Origin: a phage
Sequence record: OZ418233.1
Reading direction: 5' to 3' (one strand)
DNA length: 40,362 nt
Shown: piece by piece, positions 11,959-35,319 of the stretch
How positions within the stretch are numbered: position 1 is the stretch's first letter
Layout of the letters: each line of letters opens with the position of its first letter
Notes under the pieces: generated by a model
The model's database searches: none
Seen by the model: the letters and a program-made list of their open reading frames with translations, nothing else
Told to the model about the DNA's origin: nothing
Made by a program: the position numbers and the translations under genes

Positions 11959-12503
11959 TGTGCGATCCGGTTATTGCTGGTGGCGCAATGCTCGCCATGA
12001 GTGGCATTCAGGCATACACCCAGTACCAACAGGGAAAGTATGCCTCGAAGGTTGCAGAAGCGAACGCAGATATAGCCACTGCTCAGGCAAATGATGCAAT
12101 AAACATAGGTAACGCTGAAGCTGAGCAACGGCGCAGAGAGACCCGACAGCGGCTTGGTACACAGGCGGCGACAATGGGGGCTACCGGCGCTGATTTATCT
12201 ACAGGTAACGCGCTGGATATATTTGGCGACACTGCTCAGTTTGGCGCTCTTGATGCGCTGACGACGGTGAATAACGCGCAACGCGAGGCTTACGGTTATC
12301 AGGTTCAGGTTGCCAACTATAAAGCAGAAGCCAGTTCAGCCCGTAAACAGGGGAATGTAGGAGCAGCAACAACATTGCTCACTGCGCCTCTGAAGGCATA
12401 CGGTGCGTACCAGATGTTTGGTGGGACGTGGAGTCCGTTTACTCAAAGCACTCCTGCGCCAATCGGGGCAGCAGCAGGAACCAGATTACCCGGAGGATTA
12501 TAA
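11958..12503 (+). CDS. internal virion protein, T7 gp14-like
   Basis: Starts Met-Cys and ends with a Gly/Ala-rich basic tail (APIGAAAGTRLPGGL), resembling T7 gp14 as I recall it; stop overlaps next start (TAATG at 12501-12505). Confidence 0.55.
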   Translation: MCDPVIAGGAMLAMSGIQAYTQYQQGKYASKVAEANADIATAQANDAINIGNAEAEQRRRETRQRLGTQAATMGATGADLSTGNALDIFGDTAQFGALDALTTVNNAQREAYGYQVQVANYKAEASSARKQGNVGAATTLLTAPLKAYGAYQMFGGTWSPFTQSTPAPIGAAAGTRLPGGL

Positions 12504-14932
12504 TGCCAGTCGTACCAACAGTATCCGGACGTCAGGTTGAGAGTCGTGGAGTTCAGTCAGCAGGCTTGCAGACGTTTTCTCAGCCAGGTATTGGTGATGC
12601 TTTTGTTCGGGCAGGGACAGAGGCAATTGATGTTTTGGGGCAGGCAAAACAGCGTGCCAATATCGCTCTGGCTCAGGAGGCATCTCTTAACCTCAGTCAG
12701 ATAAGCAGCGATCTGCTGAATAATCCTGAAACAGGATTGCTTAACCTGAAAGGGAAAAATGCTATTGGAAAAGGCCATGAGTATACGCAGCAGTTTGATG
12801 CTCAGGTCGAACAACTGGCTATGTCGCTGCCGGATGAACAGGCTCGTAATGCTTTCATGCAGCAGGCGCAGCAGCAGCGTATTCAGTTCACTACGCAGGC
12901 CGGGCGGCACGAGATAGGGCAAATAAATGCCTACGAAGAAGGCCAGTTTCAGGCTACACTGCTGAACAATGGTAAAAATGCCGCAGCATTGTATGGCGAC
13001 AACGCCGCATACGTATTGGCTAACAAGCAAACTTTCCAGCAAATTGAGGAGTACGGTGTTGCACATGGCTGGAGCAACGAGCAAATCCAGGCCAAGAAAA
13101 TCGAGTTTAAAGAGAAGGTTGCTGATGCTGCATTGTCCCAGTGGTCGGCAAACAATGCGACCGCATTCATCCAAAGTAATGGCGAGTTAAGTGATACTGC
13201 TGCTGGAGCTCGCCGTGCTGTAGCAGATAGTGACTCTTCCGAGCGTGCCCGTGGCATACGCAACAATAACCCAGGAAATCTCGAATACAGCAAAACTAAT
13301 CCGTGGGTAGGCCAGACCGGTGATGATGGTCGATTTGCTAAATTCGAAACACCTGAACACGGGATTCGTGCATTAGGGCGGAACCTGATGTCGTATCAGA
13401 GGCAGGGTATTGATACCGTCAGCGAGATAATTAATCGCTGGGCACCGCCTACTGATAAAAATGACACTATGTCGTATATCAAAGCAGTGTGCGAACAACT
13501 TGGCGTTTCTGCTGATGAGCCTCTCGATGCATCTAATCCTGATACCCTGAAGGCGCTTTGTGCAGCCATTATCCATCATGAGAACGGTAGCCAGCCATAC
13601 AGTGATCAGCAGTTAACTGCTGGTGTCAGTGCAGCACTTGGTTTATCAACAATTCCAACCAACATCAAACGCTATACCGGTAATGCAGCATTCGATGCGG
13701 CATCTCCTGAGGCGCAGGCAAGTTTTATGCGACAGGCGGATCAACTGCGTCGGCAGCAGCAGGCTGAATATAAAACGATGATTGACAGCCAGGTTCGCGA
13801 TGCGACAGCTGCGTATATGCGTGGCGTTGAATTTCCTAACCCACCTGGTGAGGCTGATTTTATTGCAGCTTATGGAGTCAGAGAAGGAAACCTGCGATAT
13901 ACCGAGTTCAGAAATGCGCAAATCGCCGGACAGTATATAGGCTCTTTCCGCAACATGCCGACAAGCAGCATTACATCATATGTTGAGCAATTACGCCCGG
14001 ATACTGGTGAGACAGGGGAGGGTTATGCGGCACGAGCCGCTCTTTATGACAACGTTGTGTCGGCTGCAAGTCAGGTGATAAAGCAGCGACAGGCTGATCC
14101 TGTACAGTTCTCTCTTGCCGCCGGACAGGCAAAGCCTATCGACATGAGCAATAAGGATAACTTTGGACAGAGCGTTGCCTTGCGTGCCGCTCAGGTCAGT
14201 GACCTTGCTAAGTCATATGGCACTCCACTGACGTTCTTTTCCAAAGACGAGGCCAATCAGATCGGTGTTTTCTTTCGTGATGCGCCCGTTTCCCAACAGG
14301 CAGCATATCTCGATACCATCAGGCAGAGCACTGGTGGTGGGCAGGTGTATATGTCAGCACTACAGCAGATCAGTGCCAACGCTCCATCTGCTGCCGTTGC
14401 CGGGATACTGATGGATAAGCCAGGTGGTATTTTGGCAGAAAAAAACTGGTTTAATCCGGATGTTTCCGTGTCTCCTGAAACCGCTGCGCAGACAATTCTT
14501 GCTGGCGCGGCGGCTCGTAAAGGTACTGATGACGCGAAAGGTATTCCGATGCCTAAAGATGCTGATCTTCGCCTTGAGTTTTCTGACATGGTGAAGGATG
14601 CATTTGCTGGTGATGCTCAGGGGGCATCAATGGCATACGAGATCGCAAAGGACTATTACGCTGGTGTGATGGCGAAAAAAGGCGTGGTATCAGGCGAAAT
14701 TGACAATGATATCTGGAAACAGGCTGTTAACGTAGCTACAGGTGGCGTGCATGACTATAACGGAATGGGGAATGTTCTTTTGCCGTGGGGAATGTCTGCA
14801 GAGCAATTCGATAAGCAGGTTAATCAGGCTTGGAATGAACAAGTTGTTGGCACAGGGATAAAAACACCGCCTGGTCAGTATGGTGAACCGCCCCGGGAAT
14901 CCTGGAGACTAAACTTCCTGAGAAAGAGGTAA
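12503..14932 (+). pseudogene. large internal virion/ejection protein gene, 3' end disrupted by IS insertion
   Basis: Reading frame runs into the IS left end at 14884 and stops at an IS-internal TAA (14930-14932); the original reading frame resumes in frame after the IS (16197-16329). Contains motif RNNNPGNLEY, which may mark a cell-wall-hydrolase-like domain (unverified). Confidence 0.7.
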
Positions 14933-14937
14933 ACAGG

Positions 14938-15264
14938 ATGACTAAAAATACTCGTTTTTCCCCCGAAGTCCGTCAACGGGCAGTCCGTATGGTTCTGGAA
15001 AGTCAGAGCGAATATGACTCACAATGGGCGACAATTTGTTCCATTGCTCCAAAGATTGGCTGTACGCCGGAGACTCTGCGTGTCTGGGTTCGCCAGCATG
15101 AGCGGGATACCGGGGGCGGTGATGGAGGGCTCACCACCGCTGAACGTCAGCGTCTGAAAGAGCTGGAACGTGAAAATCGTGAACTGCGCCGCAGTAACGA
15201 TATCCTTCGCCAGGCTTCCGCTTATTTTGCGAAGGCGGAGTTCGACCGCCTCTGGAAAAAATGA
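14938..15264 (+). CDS. IS3-family transposase OrfA (HTH)
   Basis: 108 aa ending in a leucine-zipper-like segment ([25 protein letters not shown]); overlaps orfB in the -1 frame as in IS3 elements. Confidence 0.85.
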
Positions 15265-16151
15265 TGCCACTGCTGGATAAGCTGCGTGAGCAGTACGGGG
15301 TCGGACCGCTATGCAGCGAACTGCATATTGCCCCGTCAACGTATTACCACTGTCAGCAACAGCGACATCATCCGGATAAACGCAGTGCCCGTGCGCAGCG
15401 CGATGACTGGCTGAAGAAAGAGATACAGCGCGTATACGATGAAAATCACAAGGTATACGGTGTGCGTAAAGTCTGGCGTCAGTTGTTACGGGAAGGTATC
15501 AGAGTGGCCAGATGCACTGTGGCACGTCTCATGGCGGTTATGGGACTTGCCGGTGTTCTCCGGGGTAAAAAGGTCCGTACGACCATCAGCCGGAAAGCCG
15601 TTGCCGCAGGCGACCGCGTAAACCGTCAGTTCGTGGCAGAACGACCTGACCAGCTGTGGGTGGCTGATTTTACTTACGTCAGCACATGGCGGGGCTTCGT
15701 CTATGTGGCGTTCATCATTGATGTGTTTGCCGGATACATCGTGGGGTGGCGGGTCTCATCGTCCATGGAAACGACATTCGTGCTGGATGCACTGGAGCAG
15801 GCGTTATGGGCCCGTCGACCGTCCGGCACGGTCCATCACAGTGATAAAGGTTCTCAGTATGTATCGCTGGCCTACACACAGCGGCTTAAGGAAGCCGGAT
15901 TACTGGCATCAACAGGAAGTACAGGCGACTCGTATGACAACGCGATGGCGGAGAGCATCAATGGTCTTTACAAAGCGGAGGTAATACACCGTAAGAGCTG
16001 GAAAAACCGTGCAGAAGTGGAACTGGCCACACTCACGTGGGTGGACTGGTATAACAATCGACGATTGCTGGAAAGGCTGGGCCATACTCCTCCGGCAGAA
16101 GCAGAAAAAGCTTATTATGCTTCCATCGGAAACGATGATCTGGCAGCCTGA
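15261..16151 (+). CDS. IS3-family transposase OrfB (DDE integrase-like catalytic domain)
   Basis: 296 aa with rve-type features (WVADFTYV..., HSDKGSQY..., [15 protein letters not shown]); overlaps orfA, consistent with programmed frameshift expression. Confidence 0.85.
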
Positions 16152-16193
16152 GTTCACAGATAAAACACTCTCCAGGAAACCCGGGGCGGTTCA

Positions 16194-18133: not shown

Positions 18134-20608
18134 ATGAGACAGGAATGTATACAAGCGGTCCAGCAGGCGGCGCAGCGCACGTTAACGGCGCGAGAAATAC
18201 AGAACATTGAAGACCGCATTTATCGCAATATGCGCTCCATTGCTCGTGATGACCCTATGTCGTGGCGACAACTTTCCGAGTCAGAGCGGCTGTATCGTGC
18301 AGCACAATTGGCATCTGAAGAATTACAGCGAGAAGCGGCATTAAAGAAACGTCGTGTGGCTCTTACTATAGCCGCACGTCAGAGATTGGATAAATTTATC
18401 AATAGCTATCAAGGGGCTGATGGGAAACTTGGCGCTCTTAACCGTACTATTGCTTTTAATGCAGACGGTAAATCGAATTTCCTCTCTGTTGAGTCCAGAA
18501 CAAAAGCCACTCGTGATTATGCATTGAGTCAATTGCAGGAGGCATTTGAAGCAGTTGATCCTCGCTTTTTTGGCCTGTTTGAAGATGAAGCTGGCGTGCG
18601 TGACCTGGTATATGAAATGCGAGGGCAAAATACTGGCAATGCTAAAGCAAGAAAAGGTGCTAAGGCGTGGAGAGAAGTGACAGATCTACTGCGCCGCCGG
18701 TTTAATGATGCTGGTGGGGACATTGGCTATCTCGAAAACTGGGGGATCCCTCAACATCATTCTATGGAAAAGGTTGGGACGGTATCAAAAGATAAATGGG
18801 TTAGCGATGTTATAGGTAAGCTGGATCGCAAATATTATACCCGAGCCGATGGACAACTGATGAACGATGCCGAGTTGTCTGCATTTCTTGGAGAGGCTTA
18901 TAACACGATCGCTACTGGTGGGCTGAATAAGCTTACTGATACCGGAATGCGAATTTCCGGCGCACGTGCTAACCGTGGTAATGCATCACGACAGATACAT
19001 TTCAAAGATGCAGATTCCTATCTGCAATATCAGCAACTTTATGGCGATCGCTCTCTATGGGAAATCATGGTCGGTCACCTTGAAGGTATCAGTAAAGATA
19101 TTGCACTGGTGGAAACATATGGCCCAAACCCCGATCATGTTTTCCGCTCTCTTCTTGATCAGGTGAAGGCAGAAACGGCAACAGCTAACCCGAGTAAAAC
19201 CGGTAAAGTCGAGCGGCTGGCGAACAACACAGAGAATCTGTACAACTTTATTTCCGGAAAGACACAGCCTGTAGCGAATCCGCACATCGCGCGATGGTCT
19301 GACAATATCCGCAACTGGCTGGTTGCCAGCAGACTCGGATCCGCGTTGCTGTCATCGTTCTCTGATCTTGGAACCATGTATCTGTCTGCGAAGGTTACCA
19401 ACCTTCCAATGAACCAGTTATTCCGCAACCAGCTTGAAGCTATGGACCCAACGAACCGTACAGAACTTGCGCGGGCGCGCCGCGCTGGTCTGGCGATGGA
19501 ATCTCTACTTGGCAGCGTTAACCGCTGGGCGATGGATAATATGGGGCCGTCTGTGTCTCGTTGGGCTGCAACGGCGGTGATGCGTGCCAGTGGGCTTACA
19601 GCATGGTCAGATGCGCACAAGCGCGCCTATGGCGTAACCATGATGGGAAGCCTGGGAGAAGTAGTGTCACGGACACCAGACCTTCGTAGCCTCGATGATT
19701 CTGATTTTCGTATCCTGAAAAGCAAAGGGATTACTGACACAGACTGGAGCGTATGGAAGCTGGCGCAACAGGAGGACTGGGGGAACGGCAATAATACGAT
19801 GCTGACACCGGAAAGCATTATGCGTATCCCTGATTCAGCAGTTAAACATCTTGGTGAGCCTGAACGCGTGAAATTTGAGGCAATGCGTAAACTGCTCGGT
19901 GCCGTAACTGAAGAAGTTGATATGGCTGTTATTACACCGGGAGCACGTGAGCAACTGATAACCGGTTCTGGTATTCAGCGTGGAACATGGAAAGGTGAAT
20001 TAACGAGAAGTGTTTTCCTGTTTAAATCGTTCCCTATCTCGGTGGTTATGCGTCACTGGTCACGCGCTATGGGTATGCCGTCTGCTGGTGGGCGTGCGGC
20101 ATATATTGCGACGTTTATTGCCAGTACGACCATTCTTGGCGCTTTGTCGCAGCAACTTAACGACCTTGCGTCTGGTCGTAATCCTCGCGAGATGACAGGA
20201 GAAGATGCTGCTAAATTTTGGCTTGGTGCTCTACTGAAAGGTGGTGGTCTTGGCCTTTACGGTGACTTTTTATTGTCAGATCACACTAGGTACGGAAGCG
20301 GCGCGCTGGCGTCGATGCTTGGCCCGGTAGCTGGTCTGGTTGATGACGTAGTGAAGATTGCTCAGGGCATACCGTTAAATGCTGTGGAAGGGAAGAATGA
20401 GCAGACTGGTGGTGATCTGGTTAAGCTGGGGAAAGGTCTGATGCCAGGTGCGAATCTCTGGTACTTAAAGGCGGCTCTCGATCACATGATCTTTAACCAG
20501 ATGCAGGAGTATTTTTCACCAGGTTATTTGCGTAAAATGGAGCAACGTTCGAAGAAAGAGTTTAACCAGACATACTGGTGGCGACCACAGGATGTCACTC
20601 CGCAATAA
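18134..20608 (+). CDS. large internal virion/ejection protein (824 aa)
   Basis: Last and largest gene of the virion core block; hydrophobic C-terminal segments; RBS GAGAGG upstream. Confidence 0.45.
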   Translation: MRQECIQAVQQAAQRTLTAREIQNIEDRIYRNMRSIARDDPMSWRQLSESERLYRAAQLASEELQREAALKKRRVALTIAARQRLDKFINSYQGADGKLGALNRTIAFNADGKSNFLSVESRTKATRDYALSQLQEAFEAVDPRFFGLFEDEAGVRDLVYEMRGQNTGNAKARKGAKAWREVTDLLRRRFNDAGGDIGYLENWGIPQHHSMEKVGTVSKDKWVSDVIGKLDRKYYTRADGQLMNDAELSAFLGEAYNTIATGGLNKLTDTGMRISGARANRGNASRQIHFKDADSYLQYQQLYGDRSLWEIMVGHLEGISKDIALVETYGPNPDHVFRSLLDQVKAETATANPSKTGKVERLANNTENLYNFISGKTQPVANPHIARWSDNIRNWLVASRLGSALLSSFSDLGTMYLSAKVTNLPMNQLFRNQLEAMDPTNRTELARARRAGLAMESLLGSVNRWAMDNMGPSVSRWAATAVMRASGLTAWSDAHKRAYGVTMMGSLGEVVSRTPDLRSLDDSDFRILKSKGITDTDWSVWKLAQQEDWGNGNNTMLTPESIMRIPDSAVKHLGEPERVKFEAMRKLLGAVTEEVDMAVITPGAREQLITGSGIQRGTWKGELTRSVFLFKSFPISVVMRHWSRAMGMPSAGGRAAYIATFIASTTILGALSQQLNDLASGRNPREMTGEDAAKFWLGALLKGGGLGLYGDFLLSDHTRYGSGALASMLGPVAGLVDDVVKIAQGIPLNAVEGKNEQTGGDLVKLGKGLMPGANLWYLKAALDHMIFNQMQEYFSPGYLRKMEQRSKKEFNQTYWWRPQDVTPQ

Positions 20609-22799: not shown

Positions 22800-22952
22800 A
22801 GTGATCACCTTTGTAGTTAGGTTAATCACCACTACCGACGCCAATCGGTTGGTGGTGAACTGTGCAGGGTTGGCGTAACCGGCTACAAAGGACCCGGCGC
22901 ACCTTTCGGTGCCCCCACACAGCCCACCATAGAATAGGTGCGCTTTACACAT

Positions 22953-22971
22953 AAAAAAACCGCTTATGCGG
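22953..22971 (-). terminator. candidate terminator/attenuator in the leader upstream of the Bro-N gene
   Basis: On the minus strand: GCCGCATAAGCGG hairpin followed by TTTTTTTA; lies between the operator/promoter region (about 23060-23080) and the Bro-N start. Confidence 0.3.
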
Positions 22972-23065
22972 CATATGTGCCTCTGTAGTAATCCGGGACG
23001 CCAATCCCGGCACTGGATTTTGCCAGTGCCCGATTACTATGGCACAAGAGGAGTGCGATGTAAAT

Positions 23066-23080
23066 TTACCGTAAAGGTAA
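23066..23080. promoter_or_regulatory. operator-like motif TTACC-GTAAA-GGTAA
   Basis: Perfect palindrome; on the minus strand it follows a -35/-10-like pair (TTGATT, 18 bp, TATCAT). Confidence 0.55.
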
Positions 23081-23158: not shown

Positions 23159-23173
23159 TTACCTTTAAGGTAA
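23159..23173. promoter_or_regulatory. operator-like motif TTACC-TTTAA-GGTAA
   Basis: Perfect palindrome 20 bp upstream of the ATG of the 242-aa gene. Confidence 0.55.
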
Positions 23174-23193: not shown

Positions 23194-23922
23194 ATGGAAG
23201 TTTTCTGGATAGTTGTTGGTGTGGTTGCGGTGATTATTTACGTTATCAACCAGAACAAGACTAAGATCTCTGATCGTACGGTCGTTAATCATAACAAAAC
23301 GATAAAGACCGAAGATGGGGAGATAACGATTAATCGTACACAGGTGATAGAACACACCTCTACTCAGTTTCAAAAAACTGGAGGTAATGCGCCTAATATT
23401 TCCGCACCTCCTGCTTATGATAGTGCGGTAATCCAGACATATTATAAACAGCAGGAGTTAGCAAAAGAGAGGCAACTGATTCAGCCAAAGCCGTTTACAG
23501 CTGAGATTCCACCTGGAGTGTCAACGCGTCCGGCATATCATGGAAGATTCCCTGGTGATGACATATCGTCTCAGTCATCTAAAAAAGCACCTCAGGCAAT
23601 ATCAGAGCCAGCAAGAATACCTTCTGTATCGCCGCCAAAAGAAGAATCAGCTAACAGAGTTTCAAGTGGTAGCAAGCAGTGCTTGCGATGCAGAATAAAC
23701 CTTCCATATGAAAAATTCAGGAAATCGTCAAAAAATCCAGATGGATTGACTAAATGGTGTGCAAGGTGTCTCGATGGCCCAAAGAATACACGCCATATGA
23801 AGTGGTGCCCAATTTGTAATGTCCGCAGAAAACGAACCAGCTTTTACCCTAATAATCAAAATGCGGACGGCTTAATGGCATGGTGCAAAACGTGCTGGGA
23901 TGAGCACAAAGCGAAACGATAG
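23194..23922 (+). CDS. membrane-anchored protein with two CxxC zinc-ribbon-like pairs (242 aa)
   Basis: RBS GAGGAAAA; N-terminal hydrophobic helix followed by basic residues; Pro/Ser-rich linker; C-terminal C-x2-C repeats (CLRC, CARC, CPIC, CKTC). Confidence 0.55.
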   Translation: MEVFWIVVGVVAVIIYVINQNKTKISDRTVVNHNKTIKTEDGEITINRTQVIEHTSTQFQKTGGNAPNISAPPAYDSAVIQTYYKQQELAKERQLIQPKPFTAEIPPGVSTRPAYHGRFPGDDISSQSSKKAPQAISEPARIPSVSPPKEESANRVSSGSKQCLRCRINLPYEKFRKSSKNPDGLTKWCARCLDGPKNTRHMKWCPICNVRRKRTSFYPNNQNADGLMAWCKTCWDEHKAKR

Positions 23923-23944
23923 GCCGCTCTTGCGGCCTTTAAAT

Positions 23945-24217
23945 TTACCGGGTTTGTTTTCGTAATTGTTCGGCACAATAGTCGAGATGTGTTTGCAGAT
24001 CCCGCATAGACATCTGTGAGCTGGTGACGTAGTTAATCAGTGCAGTCAGTTCGGCAAGTGGGCCATCGACATTAAATCCATCCTTATCGAGATCCCGGAG
24101 TAATTTCATCAAGTGCGATCCCTCCACCAGTGACTTGACGCCTCCCGGCGTGTGAATCCTTTCGGTAAATCCGTCTTCCAGTGGATAGTGATACTGCTGC
24201 ATCTTAATCTTCTCCAT
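23945..24217 (-). CDS. small antirepressor-like protein (Bro C-terminal-domain paralog), 85-90 aa
   Basis: About 45% identical by eye over 60 aa to the C-terminus of the Bro-N protein (…LAELT…RD[IL]QTH…); second ATG at 24202 has RBS GGAGAAG; LexA-box-like palindrome immediately upstream. Confidence 0.55.
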   Translation of the reverse strand: MEKIKMQQYHYPLEDGFTERIHTPGGVKSLVEGSHLMKLLRDLDKDGFNVDGPLAELTALINYVTSSQMSMRDLQTHLDYCAEQLRKQTR

Positions 24218-24221
24218 GCAA

Positions 24222-24243
24222 TAACTGTATATTTATACAGTAT
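24222..24243. promoter_or_regulatory. LexA (SOS) box candidate
   Basis: TAACTGTATATTTATACAGTAT contains CTGT-N8-ACAG with AT-rich spacer, one mismatch from the E. coli consensus TACTGTATATATATACAGTA as I recall it; located just upstream of the small antirepressor-like gene. Confidence 0.65.
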
Positions 24244-24279
24244 CAAATAATTTGTTTGCTATCCAGCACGTTTTGCAAA

Positions 24280-24294
24280 TTACCTAAAAGGTAA
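24280..24294. promoter_or_regulatory. operator-like motif TTACC-TAAAA-GGTAA
   Basis: Perfect palindrome in the divergent intergenic region between the small antirepressor-like gene and the tailspike gene. Confidence 0.55.
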
Positions 24295-24398
24295 TATCTA
24301 TTTATATTCACAGTATTTCTATCCATATGTGGTTTTTCAGGTAATAGAATAACCAGATATGCGGCGCAACGGGTGCTGCGACTATCTGGAGATTTAAC

Positions 24399-26588
24399 AT
24401 GACGGTCTCAACCGAAGTTGACCACAACGAATACACCGGTAACGGCGTTACGACATCATTTCCGTATACCTTCCGTATTTTCAAAAAAACCGACCTGGTT
24501 GTTCAGGTGTCTGACCTGAACGGGAACGTAACAGAATTGGTTCTGGATACCGGTTATAAGGTAACTGGAGCGGGCACTTATAGTGGCGGTGAAGTGGTTC
24601 TCCCGTCGCCGCTTGCTGCTGGCTGGCGAATTACGATAGAGCGTGTGCTTGATGTGGTGCAGGAGACTGATCTTCGCAATCAGGGAAAATTTTTCCCCGA
24701 AGTTCATGAAGATGCATTTGACTACCTGACGATGCTGATCCAGCGATGTTTTGGGTGGTTCAGACGTGCATTGATGAAACCATCTTTGCTTGCAAAATAT
24801 TACGATGCAAAGCAAAACAAAATTTCTAACCTTGCAGATCCATCATTTGAGCAGGACGCTGTAAATAATCGCTCAATGCGTAATTATGTCGATGCTGCAA
24901 TCGCCGGGGTTGTTGGTGGTTTTGGTTGGTTTATACCGTCAGGAAGCGGGGCAAGACAACGAACATTTCAAAGCAAAATGAGGGATATAATTTCTCCTTG
25001 TGATTACGAAGATAATATTTTTATGATTAAGGAGTTGATATCCAAAGGCAAAAATGCCGCTGTTTTTAACTCATATTATACTTTTGTTATTACTGTTGGC
25101 GAATGGGGTGATTACCCTACACTCAAAGATGCAATCATTGCAGCCCAGTCAATGAGACCTATGTGGGATGGTGGTAATGCTTTCTGCGAAATAAGAATTA
25201 AGACCGGGCATATTATCAACTATCAAATTGAATTCAGTTCAGGTGTTGATTTGTCTTGGATTAAAATAACATCAGAAGACTCAGTGGTTTTCTCTGATAC
25301 TCGTTTGTTTACTAAAATCGTTAGAACGTATTACGAATACAAGTATTTATTTTACATTTGCGATGCAGCAAAAAGTCCTGTATTTGCTATTCAGATCGAA
25401 GAAAATAGAGATGATAGCGATGTTTGTGCATTTATTGTAACTCAAAAAGCTGAACTTAATTTCTATCCGTATTCAGGTGCTCGAAAGTTCTACGTTGGAA
25501 TTCATGGTAGTTTTGGTGCAAAAATTAGTGCATATCATACCGGATGTGCTCCTGATGAGGAAAGTGTTGCTGCATATATGCCAGAAGGGTATTACGTATG
25601 TGATTTTTCTTATAGCAGATACTCTTCCCTGCAACTGGTAAATAATGTCAAGGCATCAATGCCTGTAAGCAAGTTTGAACGGTGCACAGAGAGTACGGTT
25701 GCGTCAGTTAATTGTATTTATAATGTTAAAGCAGATTTTCAGGGGTCAAGTGCAAGCTATTGTTATATAGGATGGAATGTAAGAGATGGTTCAAATGTTA
25801 ATATACGCGACCATAAAACTATACATTGCTCATATCGTGGATTAACCTGCATTCATACAGCATATGTTGATGCAAGACGACATGACGTTGAAGAAAGTGA
25901 TGCAGAAACAAGTGGTAAAGTCCTTGAACCAAATATTGAAAAAGGTTTTTATGGATGTGCACTTGGTGTGCGTATTGATGGTGCGGGTTGCGTTGATGTT
26001 GCTGGTAATGATATGCGCAATTGTGGAACAGCCGTTAATGCAGACACTGGTGCTGTTATTTCAGGAAAGGCTGTAGATATCTCAGGGGCTGAGCTGGGAT
26101 TTGATTGCCATGCAGGAGCATCTGTTAATTTTCCAAGGCTATGGGGTACAGATATAAAAAAATTAATGCACCTCCAAGATGGTGTAAGGTTTAACTCTAA
26201 TATTTGTCATGTATTTGGTGCAAATCCCACAAAAGATATTAGATGGATTGATGTAGAGAGATCTGAAGCTTCTTTTATGAATGCAACGCTGGATGCAGAT
26301 TCAGGATTTATTGCCGACTGTGGTAGTAGGATAACCATTGAAGGAAGTAAAGTTAAAAACCAAACAATAAGAAGTTTTTTTGGATCATATGTGGCTATAA
26401 ATAATACTGTTGCTGACAGAACTTATTCAGATATAGCCGATGTTCCGCAGTTGACTATTAGTGGAGGATCTTTTATTTCTGCTACAGGATATTCTAATTC
26501 TGACTCCAGCCCTCTGAGGTTGAGCACAACACGAAATACACTTGGCGTTGGAGGAGCCATATTTTCAACCAATGGGGAAGTTTCATGA
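24399..26588 (+). CDS. tailspike / receptor-binding depolymerase (729 aa)
   Basis: N-terminal about 130 aa resembles the conserved particle-binding module of podovirus tailspikes (from memory); the remaining body is visibly AT-rich; RBS GGAG. Confidence 0.75.
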   Translation: MTVSTEVDHNEYTGNGVTTSFPYTFRIFKKTDLVVQVSDLNGNVTELVLDTGYKVTGAGTYSGGEVVLPSPLAAGWRITIERVLDVVQETDLRNQGKFFPEVHEDAFDYLTMLIQRCFGWFRRALMKPSLLAKYYDAKQNKISNLADPSFEQDAVNNRSMRNYVDAAIAGVVGGFGWFIPSGSGARQRTFQSKMRDIISPCDYEDNIFMIKELISKGKNAAVFNSYYTFVITVGEWGDYPTLKDAIIAAQSMRPMWDGGNAFCEIRIKTGHIINYQIEFSSGVDLSWIKITSEDSVVFSDTRLFTKIVRTYYEYKYLFYICDAAKSPVFAIQIEENRDDSDVCAFIVTQKAELNFYPYSGARKFYVGIHGSFGAKISAYHTGCAPDEESVAAYMPEGYYVCDFSYSRYSSLQLVNNVKASMPVSKFERCTESTVASVNCIYNVKADFQGSSASYCYIGWNVRDGSNVNIRDHKTIHCSYRGLTCIHTAYVDARRHDVEESDAETSGKVLEPNIEKGFYGCALGVRIDGAGCVDVAGNDMRNCGTAVNADTGAVISGKAVDISGAELGFDCHAGASVNFPRLWGTDIKKLMHLQDGVRFNSNICHVFGANPTKDIRWIDVERSEASFMNATLDADSGFIADCGSRITIEGSKVKNQTIRSFFGSYVAINNTVADRTYSDIADVPQLTISGGSFISATGYSNSDSSPLRLSTTRNTLGVGGAIFSTNGEVS

Positions 26589-34349: not shown

Positions 34350-34934
34350 TTATTGTTTGTTTTTTTCGTTCTGGTTGATGACAAATTCAATGTAACTTTC
34401 GATCTTTGCCTTCTCTGTTTCAGGTAGCAATGCGTAGCGCGAGCGGTCATAGTTGATAGTCGCGGGGTCGTGCGGGTGAATCAGTAATTCATATCCGTGA
34501 CGCCCAAATGCGGATGCAACATTCTCCAGGGTGGAAATGGAAACGCTGACCTCATTGTTTAACAGGCGGCTGATTGTTACCTGGGCGACGCCGGATGCGC
34601 GGTGAAGTTTTCCCTGCGTTGAAAGGTCGCGGCTTTCGCTCATCCAGCGTTCCAGGTTGTGAGCCGCCAGTTGACCAATGTCGCTTGGTCCGACAGGCTG
34701 AAAACCTTCCTGAGAAAGCGAGCGATCGATATCAAGCCAGTTACGGGGTTTATTGGCGGCAGCTTCAATTTTTCGCGCAACCTGGTCGCCGATAACCTTC
34801 TTGCCAAGAGCCCAGCGGTTTACCAGATTTGCCTGAGTTCCAAGTTTTTCAGCCATCCGCGTCTGAACACCATTGAATTCACGGTCGATCAAGTCGTTGA
34901 GATTTTGCCTGCGGACGTCCTGGATACTTTTCAT
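34350..34934 (-). CDS. prophage repressor candidate with two HTH (XRE-like) domains, no peptidase domain
   Basis: 194 aa; two HTH-like segments (…TRMAEKLGTQANLVNRWALGK… and …SGVAQVTISRLLNNEVSVSISTLENVASAFG…); divergent from a Cro-like gene with two palindromic operators between them; no Ala-Gly/Ser...Lys S24-type self-cleavage module seen. Confidence 0.55.
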   Translation of the reverse strand: MKSIQDVRRQNLNDLIDREFNGVQTRMAEKLGTQANLVNRWALGKKVIGDQVARKIEAAANKPRNWLDIDRSLSQEGFQPVGPSDIGQLAAHNLERWMSESRDLSTQGKLHRASGVAQVTISRLLNNEVSVSISTLENVASAFGRHGYELLIHPHDPATINYDRSRYALLPETEKAKIESYIEFVINQNEKNKQ

Positions 34935-34989: not shown

Positions 34990-35004
34990 TTACCCAACAG
35001 GTAA
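34990..35004. promoter_or_regulatory. operator-like motif TTACC-CAACA-GGTAA (immunity region)
   Basis: Perfect palindrome in the repressor/Cro-like divergent intergenic region. Confidence 0.6.
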
Positions 35005-35037: not shown

Positions 35038-35052
35038 TTACCTTATAGGTGA
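35038..35052. promoter_or_regulatory. operator-like motif TTACC-TTATA-GGTGA (one mismatch) overlapping a rightward promoter
   Basis: Sits between a -35-like TTGTTA (35035-35040) and a -10-like TATTAT (35058-35063, 17-bp spacing) upstream of the Cro-like gene. Confidence 0.55.
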
Positions 35053-35088: not shown

Positions 35089-35319
35089 ATGAGCGATAAC
35101 GGACATTTCGATTTCAAAAAGCACTGGCTTGCACTTACTCCGGATGAGCGTGAAGCCTTCGCACAGGAAGCCGGAACGACGAGTCACTATATCCAGACTC
35201 ACTTAACAGGTAAGCGCAAAATGCCAGGTAAGGTATTGATGAATGGGCTTTTTAAAGCCTGTAAATCAAGACAATGGCTGCGCTCAAAAGCAGAACTGGC
35301 ATACTTCTTCTACTCATGA
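35089..35319 (+). CDS. Cro-like small HTH regulator (76 aa)
   Basis: Small basic protein with an HTH-like segment (EREAFAQEAGTTSHYIQTHLTG), first gene of the rightward operon, divergent from the repressor. Confidence 0.5.
   Translation: MSDNGHFDFKKHWLALTPDEREAFAQEAGTTSHYIQTHLTGKRKMPGKVLMNGLFKACKSRQWLRSKAELAYFFYS

Follow-up and report, generated by a model that had tools for sequence, protein, structure and literature searches.

The 40,362-bp window analyzed here (the whole stretch of phage DNA, end to end) has the size of a complete genome and represents a phiV10/epsilon15-like podophage that belongs to the genus Uetakevirus. A small minus-strand gene of this phage, together with the LexA operator (SOS box) in front of it, very probably forms the part of an E. 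coli prophage's lytic switch that senses the SOS response, orthologous to the LexA-Ant-Rep switch of Salmonella phage SPC32H (Kim and Ryu 2013, J Virol 87:11775; Kim et al. 2016, PNAS 113:E2480; PDB 5D50, 5D4Z). This reading is based on sequence features, on the orthology of all three components, and on the position and conservation of the operator (Table 1). Every feature of an SPC32H-type switch that can be checked in a sequence was found in the window, which would place the element within that type.

Table 1. Features of the ant switch, the repressor region and the neighboring Bro-N module (positions in the window).
Feature	Position	Strand	Basis
ant, 85-aa antirepressor, SPC32H Ant ortholog	23945-24202	-	PDB 5D50 chain E match, tblastn, start alignment
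Shine-Dalgarno of ant, GGAG	24215-24212	-	9 nt before ATG; invariant in 9-phage alignment
LexA operator (SOS box), AACTGTATATTTATACAGTA	24223-24242	.	2 mismatches vs 20-mer consensus TACTGTATATATATACAGTA
Predicted extended -10 of ant promoter, TG-a-TACTGT	24237-24245	-	invariant alignment columns
Predicted -35 of ant promoter, TGGATA, 17 nt upstream of TACTGT	24260-24265	-	CTGGA.A invariant in 9/9 phages
Palindrome between ant and tailspike gene, probable Rep operator	24280-24294	.	invariant half-sites in 9-phage alignment
GC-rich terminator-like hairpin between convergent ant and 242-aa gene	23921-23938	.	called on + strand
rep, 194-aa prophage repressor, two HTH-type domains	34350-34934	-	5D50 chain A match; Pfam
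cro-like early gene, divergent from rep	35089-35319	+	phrog_35, transcriptional repressor
Candidate operator palindromes in rep/cro-like intergenic region	34990-35004 and 35038-35052	.	pattern scan
Candidate operator palindromes upstream of isrK/C4/Bro-N module	23066-23080 and 23159-23173	.	pattern scan
TTACC-N5-GGTAA 15-mers, all starts	47, 65, 3212, 22032, 23066, 23159, 24280, 29134, 34216, 34278, 34990, 35038, 37345, 37407		pattern scan, <=1 mismatch
Second antirepressor candidate, Bro-N + Ant-like C-terminal domain, 228 aa	22113-22799	-	Bro-N E=5e-20; phrog_130 'anti-repressor Ant' + phrog_450
C4-type antisense RNA, directly upstream of Bro-N::Ant-like gene	22848-22934	-	Rfam RF01695, 79.5 bits
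isrK-type Hfq-binding RNA with own terminator (22972-22959)	22953-23029	-	Rfam RF01394, 76.8 bits

The identity of the small gene comes from its product, which matches chain E of PDB entry 5D50 ('Anti-repressor protein', E=4.6e-46) over 83 of its 85 residues and is 85.5% identical to the ant product of SPC32H (KC911856, tblastn). The first-pass annotation of this DNA had proposed a novel small antirepressor, and the novelty does not hold, since the protein is 85% identical to the 5D50 Ant chain and its ortholog is already named 'ant: anti-repressor protein' in the GenBank records of SPC32H and SPC32N. Its apparent newness reflects a gap in annotation: RefSeq labels the E. coli orthologs 'hypothetical protein', PHROGs places the protein in phrog_450 ('unknown function'), and Pfam has no family for the 85-aa Ant. 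The ant-tailspike segment is 95-98% identical to that of E. coli phages phiV10, vB_EcoP_PAS61, phiv142-3, ZX5 and TL-2011b, and 100% identical to prophages of several E. coli chromosomes. More broadly, an exhaustive profile search for the Ant-like domain returned just 64 cluster representatives, either stand-alone proteins of ~85-95 aa or C-terminal modules behind Bro-N, AntA, Rha (Phage_pRha) or ORF6N heads (fused forms: P0122, P0123, P0130, P0144, P0172, P0174, P0175). These fused forms surfaced in the exhaustive search, whereas an ordinary homologue search returned only close stand-alone homologues. The two kinds of architecture suggest that the ~85-aa domain may be a portable, repressor-binding effector module.

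The predicted target of Ant, the product of rep, aligns over its full length (residues 1 to 190) with 5D50 chain A ('Repressor', E=4e-42), is 42% identical to SPC32H Rep and is 100% identical to the phiV10 repressor. Pfam recognizes an HTH_3 domain at residues 106-147 and a weak HTH at 21-61, with no match to Peptidase_S24, and the C-terminal domain can be aligned to that of 5D4Z, which is an HTH-type tetramerisation domain. Rep is therefore as first described, a protein with two HTH domains and no recognizable peptidase module, and it is without the defining feature of lambda/P22-type repressors that undergo RecA-stimulated self-cleavage, namely a C-terminal S24 peptidase (Ser/Lys dyad). Homologues of Ant and Rep co-occur in the same ~35 phage records, all of them Uetakevirus-like.

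Besides the 85% identical Ant and the full-length Rep homology, the window and SPC32H (both Uetakevirus) share their gene order, with ant divergent from the tailspike gene and rep divergent from a cro-like gene, an identical position of the LexA box, and TTACC-N5-GGTAA palindromes at equivalent intergenic sites. They differ in the sequence of Rep, whose identity of only 42% probably denotes a different immunity type, and in gene content, as SPC32H is without the isrK/C4/Bro-N::Ant-like module and the 242-aa zinc-ribbon-like gene that lie here between the tail genes and ant. In phiV10 (PhiV10p24, PhiV10p23, repressor), Ant is 97.6% identical, the box has the same position and Rep is the same protein, although its Bro-N gene is split into two ORFs. 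The phiV10 and epsilon15 records differ from those of SPC32H in calling the Ant ortholog a 'hypothetical protein' and in annotating no LexA site.

The SPC32H system also comes with a natural operator mutant. Exactly two bases in the whole genome distinguish SPC32H from SPC32N (both 38,689 bp). One of these changes, at position 19960, converts CTGT to CTTT in the LexA box, while the other falls in the tailspike gene. In agreement with this, the two phages have reportedly been described as differing by two nucleotides, of which a single change, in a LexA-binding site overlapping the ant promoter, is said to make Ant constitutive. Rep is likewise said to stay uncleaved during the SOS response and to be inactivated by Ant, and the SPC32H authors reportedly regard Ant as structurally distinct. 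According to secondary descriptions, synthesis of SPC32H Ant depends on LexA self-cleavage (PMC7380047), and the Rep tetramer that binds DNA is broken up by an Ant tetramer, which takes hold of two Rep dimers (PMC9638917). Small LexA-repressed antirepressors that act on an uncleaved repressor are known also as Tum of phage 186, the antirepressors of Gifsy-1/-3 and AntC of N15 (PMC3121763, PMC7380047), but these are functional analogues, as Pfam, PDB and PHROG searches of Ant returned just the SPC32H-type family. Hence the first-pass logic of a LexA-repressed antirepressor directed against a non-cleavable repressor is retained, by orthology to the SPC32H Ant/Rep/LexA system; 186 Tum and the Gifsy antirepressors are not its closest relatives.

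A second protein in the window carries the same domain. The Bro-N protein ends in a stretch of ~85 residues that shows 41% identity to Ant (82 aa, E=6e-17) and retains the invariant residues of the Ant family, in agreement with the paralogy suggested at first pass; the gene is found in the E. coli, Enterobacter and Klebsiella members of the group and is missing in SPC32H and epsilon15. Two small RNAs that had gone unnoticed in the first-pass annotation appear to control it. The predicted hairpin loop of the C4-type RNA, CCTTTGTAG (22891-22883), is complementary over 9 nt to CTACAAAGG (22816-22808), which covers the Shine-Dalgarno of the Bro-N::Ant-like gene, with another pairing element, of 7 nt, lying a few bases upstream; further up, a promoter-like TTTACA-17-CATAGT ends 7 nt before the isrK-type RNA. 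For this gene only, the arrangement is like that of P1/P7 immI (c4-icd-ant) and Gifsy-1 isrK-orf45-anrP, both in having C4-family and isrK-family RNAs directly upstream (PMC4825925, PMC7313666) and in the complementarity of the C4 loop to the ribosome-binding site. It differs in that the effector domain here is SPC32H-Ant-like and that the leader ORF icd/orf45 is missing, the 48 nt between the 3' end of C4 (22848) and the Bro-N ATG (22799) containing no ORF. Since isrK and C4 antisense RNAs precede it, the Bro-N::Ant-like gene is, judged by its sequence, a separate RNA-gated antirepressor module of the P1-immI-like kind.

It is tempting to speculate, though we hold this to be rather doubtful, that two antirepressors with one shared effector domain respond to different signals (LexA and so DNA damage vs. 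C4/isrK RNAs, with Rep operators flanking the Bro-N::Ant-like gene) and converge on Rep, the SPC32H-type Ant being a repressor-binding C-terminal module that occurs on its own and that other phages carry fused to interchangeable Bro-N, AntA, Rha or ORF6N heads. If true, the pair could act as a feed-forward lock or provide a superinfection/anti-immunity input, and a free-standing Ant module would explain what the uncharacterised C-termini of some 'Bro/Ant' proteins do. SOS-gated and RNA-gated antirepressors with one common domain are in any case a modest lead.

The same paralog bears on the best-surviving alternative to the SPC32H-type switch, in which the box does control ant but Ant no longer targets the resident Rep, or not only that protein, and instead acts in trans on the repressors of other prophages or is redundant with the Bro-N::Ant-like protein. 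Such a shift of target would fit the presence of a second Ant-domain protein, the divergence of Rep to 42% identity while Ant holds 85%, and the crosstalk through trans-acting antirepressors documented for Gifsy phages (PMC3121763). However, Ant and Rep pair one-to-one across the genus, the Rep homology spans both domains over the full length, and the Salmonella members, which are without the Bro-N paralog, nonetheless use Ant alone. We therefore consider a changed target unlikely, and take the resident Rep as the probable partner of Ant.

Turning to the operator, AACTGTATATTTATACAGTA matches the E. coli LexA consensus TACTGTATATATATACAGTA except at two positions, both outside the core, and is flanked on the + strand by ccatgcaat on the left and tcaaat on the right. 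No other site within three mismatches of the 20-mer consensus occurs in the window, against a chance expectation of 0.00 (dinucleotide-preserving shuffles of the window), which bears out the first-pass view of a single near-consensus box in front of the small gene. The CTGT-N8-ACAG core by itself is not significant in the window (17 occurrences at <=1 mismatch vs. 15 expected), and the two exact cores other than that of the box, at 2682 and 7224, are without an AT-rich spacer. We also computed an approximate heterology index (HI, Berg-von Hippel/Lewis-type) with a matrix compiled from 28 E. coli operators, which is distinct from the canonical Lewis matrix and gives absolute values that are not comparable with published HI tables: the box scored 1.21, below every training operator (umuDC and dinD included), compared with 2.6-3.6 for the SPC32H box, which is less near consensus, 10.86 for the runner-up in the window, and a poor ~13.4 for the core at 2682. 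A degenerate LexA-like site 54 bp from the main box (ATCTATTTATATTCACAGTA, 24296-24315, approximate HI 10.9 on the same scale) is conserved in no relative and is probably a chance occurrence.

Across an alignment of nine Uetakevirus phages from E. coli, Salmonella, Enterobacter and Klebsiella hosts, the box is kept while its flanks diverge, with the Klebsiella phages having ATGT where the others have CTGT, and in the ant-tailspike intergenic region it coincides in every alignment column with the SPC32H box TACTGTATGTTTATACAGTG. Altogether, four elements are conserved in this alignment, with drift between them: the box, the Shine-Dalgarno, the motif CTGGA.A, which precedes TACTGT by 17 nt, and a TG separated from TACTGT by one base. 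They suggest a weak promoter of the extended -10 type (TGGATA-17-TGaTACTGT) whose TACTGT hexamer coincides with the left half of the LexA box. This promoter stays a prediction because a strict sigma-70 scan does not call it, and the scan found no promoter over the box on the + strand either. Another candidate for the ant promoter, TTGATA-17-TATTGC, was discarded as it is unconserved in SPC32H and epsilon15.

On the minus strand, ATTGCATGGAGAAGATTAAG separates the box from the ATG of ant at 24202. The first-pass annotation had drawn a gene of 85-90 aa at 23945-24217; the gene is real and its end correct, but the start has to be moved to 24202, because this is where the annotated and crystallised SPC32H start aligns, and in SPC32H the ATG further up is not in frame. 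That upstream ATG (24217, 90-aa version) also lies only 5 nt from the box and within the conserved Shine-Dalgarno region. At its other end, ant presumably uses the hairpin listed in Table 1 as its terminator.

Position and orientation also argue against a role of the box primarily, or additionally, in regulating the divergent tailspike gene (24399-26588). The 196-bp intergenic region that holds the box is common to both genes, but the box ends 20 nt from the ATG of ant vs. 157 nt from that of the tailspike gene, the conserved promoter-like elements around it face ant, and no + strand promoter overlaps it. Moreover, Kim and Ryu reportedly found that the box mutation of SPC32N acts through Ant, and we regard control of the tailspike gene as very unlikely. 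Another alternative, in which the palindrome arose by chance or serves some other regulator and the small ORF encodes no antirepressor, is effectively refuted: the core alone is indeed unenriched, but the full 20-mer has a chance expectation of zero, the site is kept across genera, and the protein matches a crystallised antirepressor.

The operators through which Rep would act are probably the TTACC-N5-GGTAA palindromes, which are dispersed over the genome. At <=1 mismatch these number 14 in the window vs. 0.69 expected, nearly all intergenic and promoter-proximal, and SPC32H has 18 vs. 0.48 expected at equivalent positions. Such an operator is not new, since the GenBank record of epsilon15 (gp19, gp38) already annotates the same palindromes, as 17-mers, as 'repressor' binding sites. 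Near rep, two copies (34216 and 34278) lie just downstream of the gene, and the one at 35038-35052 sits within the spacer of a promoter-like TTGATT-18-AATATT that, as read by eye, would face the cro-like gene. The copy between ant and the tailspike gene, which the first-pass annotation did not mention, is 37 bp from the LexA box, and the equivalent site of epsilon15 is annotated as a 'repressor' protein_bind. Dispersed palindromes of this kind would explain how a genome made up of several divergent transcription units can be kept silent by a single repressor. In the same intergenic region, GGTAATAGAAT (24340-24350, + strand), ~50 nt upstream of the tailspike ATG, is invariant in 9/9 aligned phages and consists of a lone operator half-site abutting TAGAAT, a -10-like hexamer; together these may represent a Rep-sensitive tailspike promoter.

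Taken together with the published SPC32H model, these elements suggest the following sequence of events. In the lysogen, host LexA would sit on the box at 24223-24242, overlapping the predicted -10 and start site of the ant promoter, and keep ant silent; since the left arm of the box doubles as the predicted -10 hexamer, bound LexA would occlude RNA polymerase. Rep would meanwhile hold the lytic/early promoters off via its TTACC-N5-GGTAA operators. Upon DNA damage, active RecA would lead to self-cleavage of LexA, and the ant promoter would be freed and ant transcribed. Ant would then accumulate, bind Rep and take apart its DNA-binding oligomer, so that Rep leaves its operators and the lytic genes are turned on, with Rep itself staying uncleaved throughout (in the SPC32H model, an Ant tetramer captures two Rep dimers). 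The main uncertainty lies in the Ant-Rep interface, the conservation of which is assumed, Rep being only 42% identical to its SPC32H counterpart although Ant is 85% identical.

As a discovery the switch is of small value, since it is already known: mechanism, structure and a natural operator mutant have been published for another Uetakevirus phage. Its practical value is in annotation, as the ant/LexA-box segment was found in 531 of 5426 complete E. coli genomes (~10%), including O157:H7-associated phiV10-like prophages. Transfer of the SPC32H annotation would explain how phiV10-like prophages sense SOS-inducing antibiotics.

Beyond the switch, the window contains an IS3-family insertion sequence of 1310 bp (14884-16193), with 25-bp terminal inverted repeats TGAACCGCCCCGGGAATCCTGGAGA, a TGG flanking duplication, an ALIL frameshift pseudoknot (15219-15335), an orfA with HTH_Tnp_1 and an orfB with rve, which we take to resemble IS629. 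The element interrupts the 3' part of a large tail/injection-protein gene (12428-14932; the SPC32H homologue has 937 aa), and the prophage may thus have lost the ability to form infectious particles. The product of the 242-aa gene that lies between the two antirepressor modules (23194-23922, + strand; phrog_6762, unknown function) has a hydrophobic segment at its N-terminus and repeated CxxC motifs of a zinc-ribbon-like kind at its C-terminus, with weak Stc1, endonuclease VII and Lar-like matches. The gene is a possible moron, as it is missing in SPC32H and has an operator palindrome (23159) ahead of it. Finally, a tRNA-Arg gene (anticodon TCT) is located at 2813-2889 on the minus strand, and SPC32H likewise has one.
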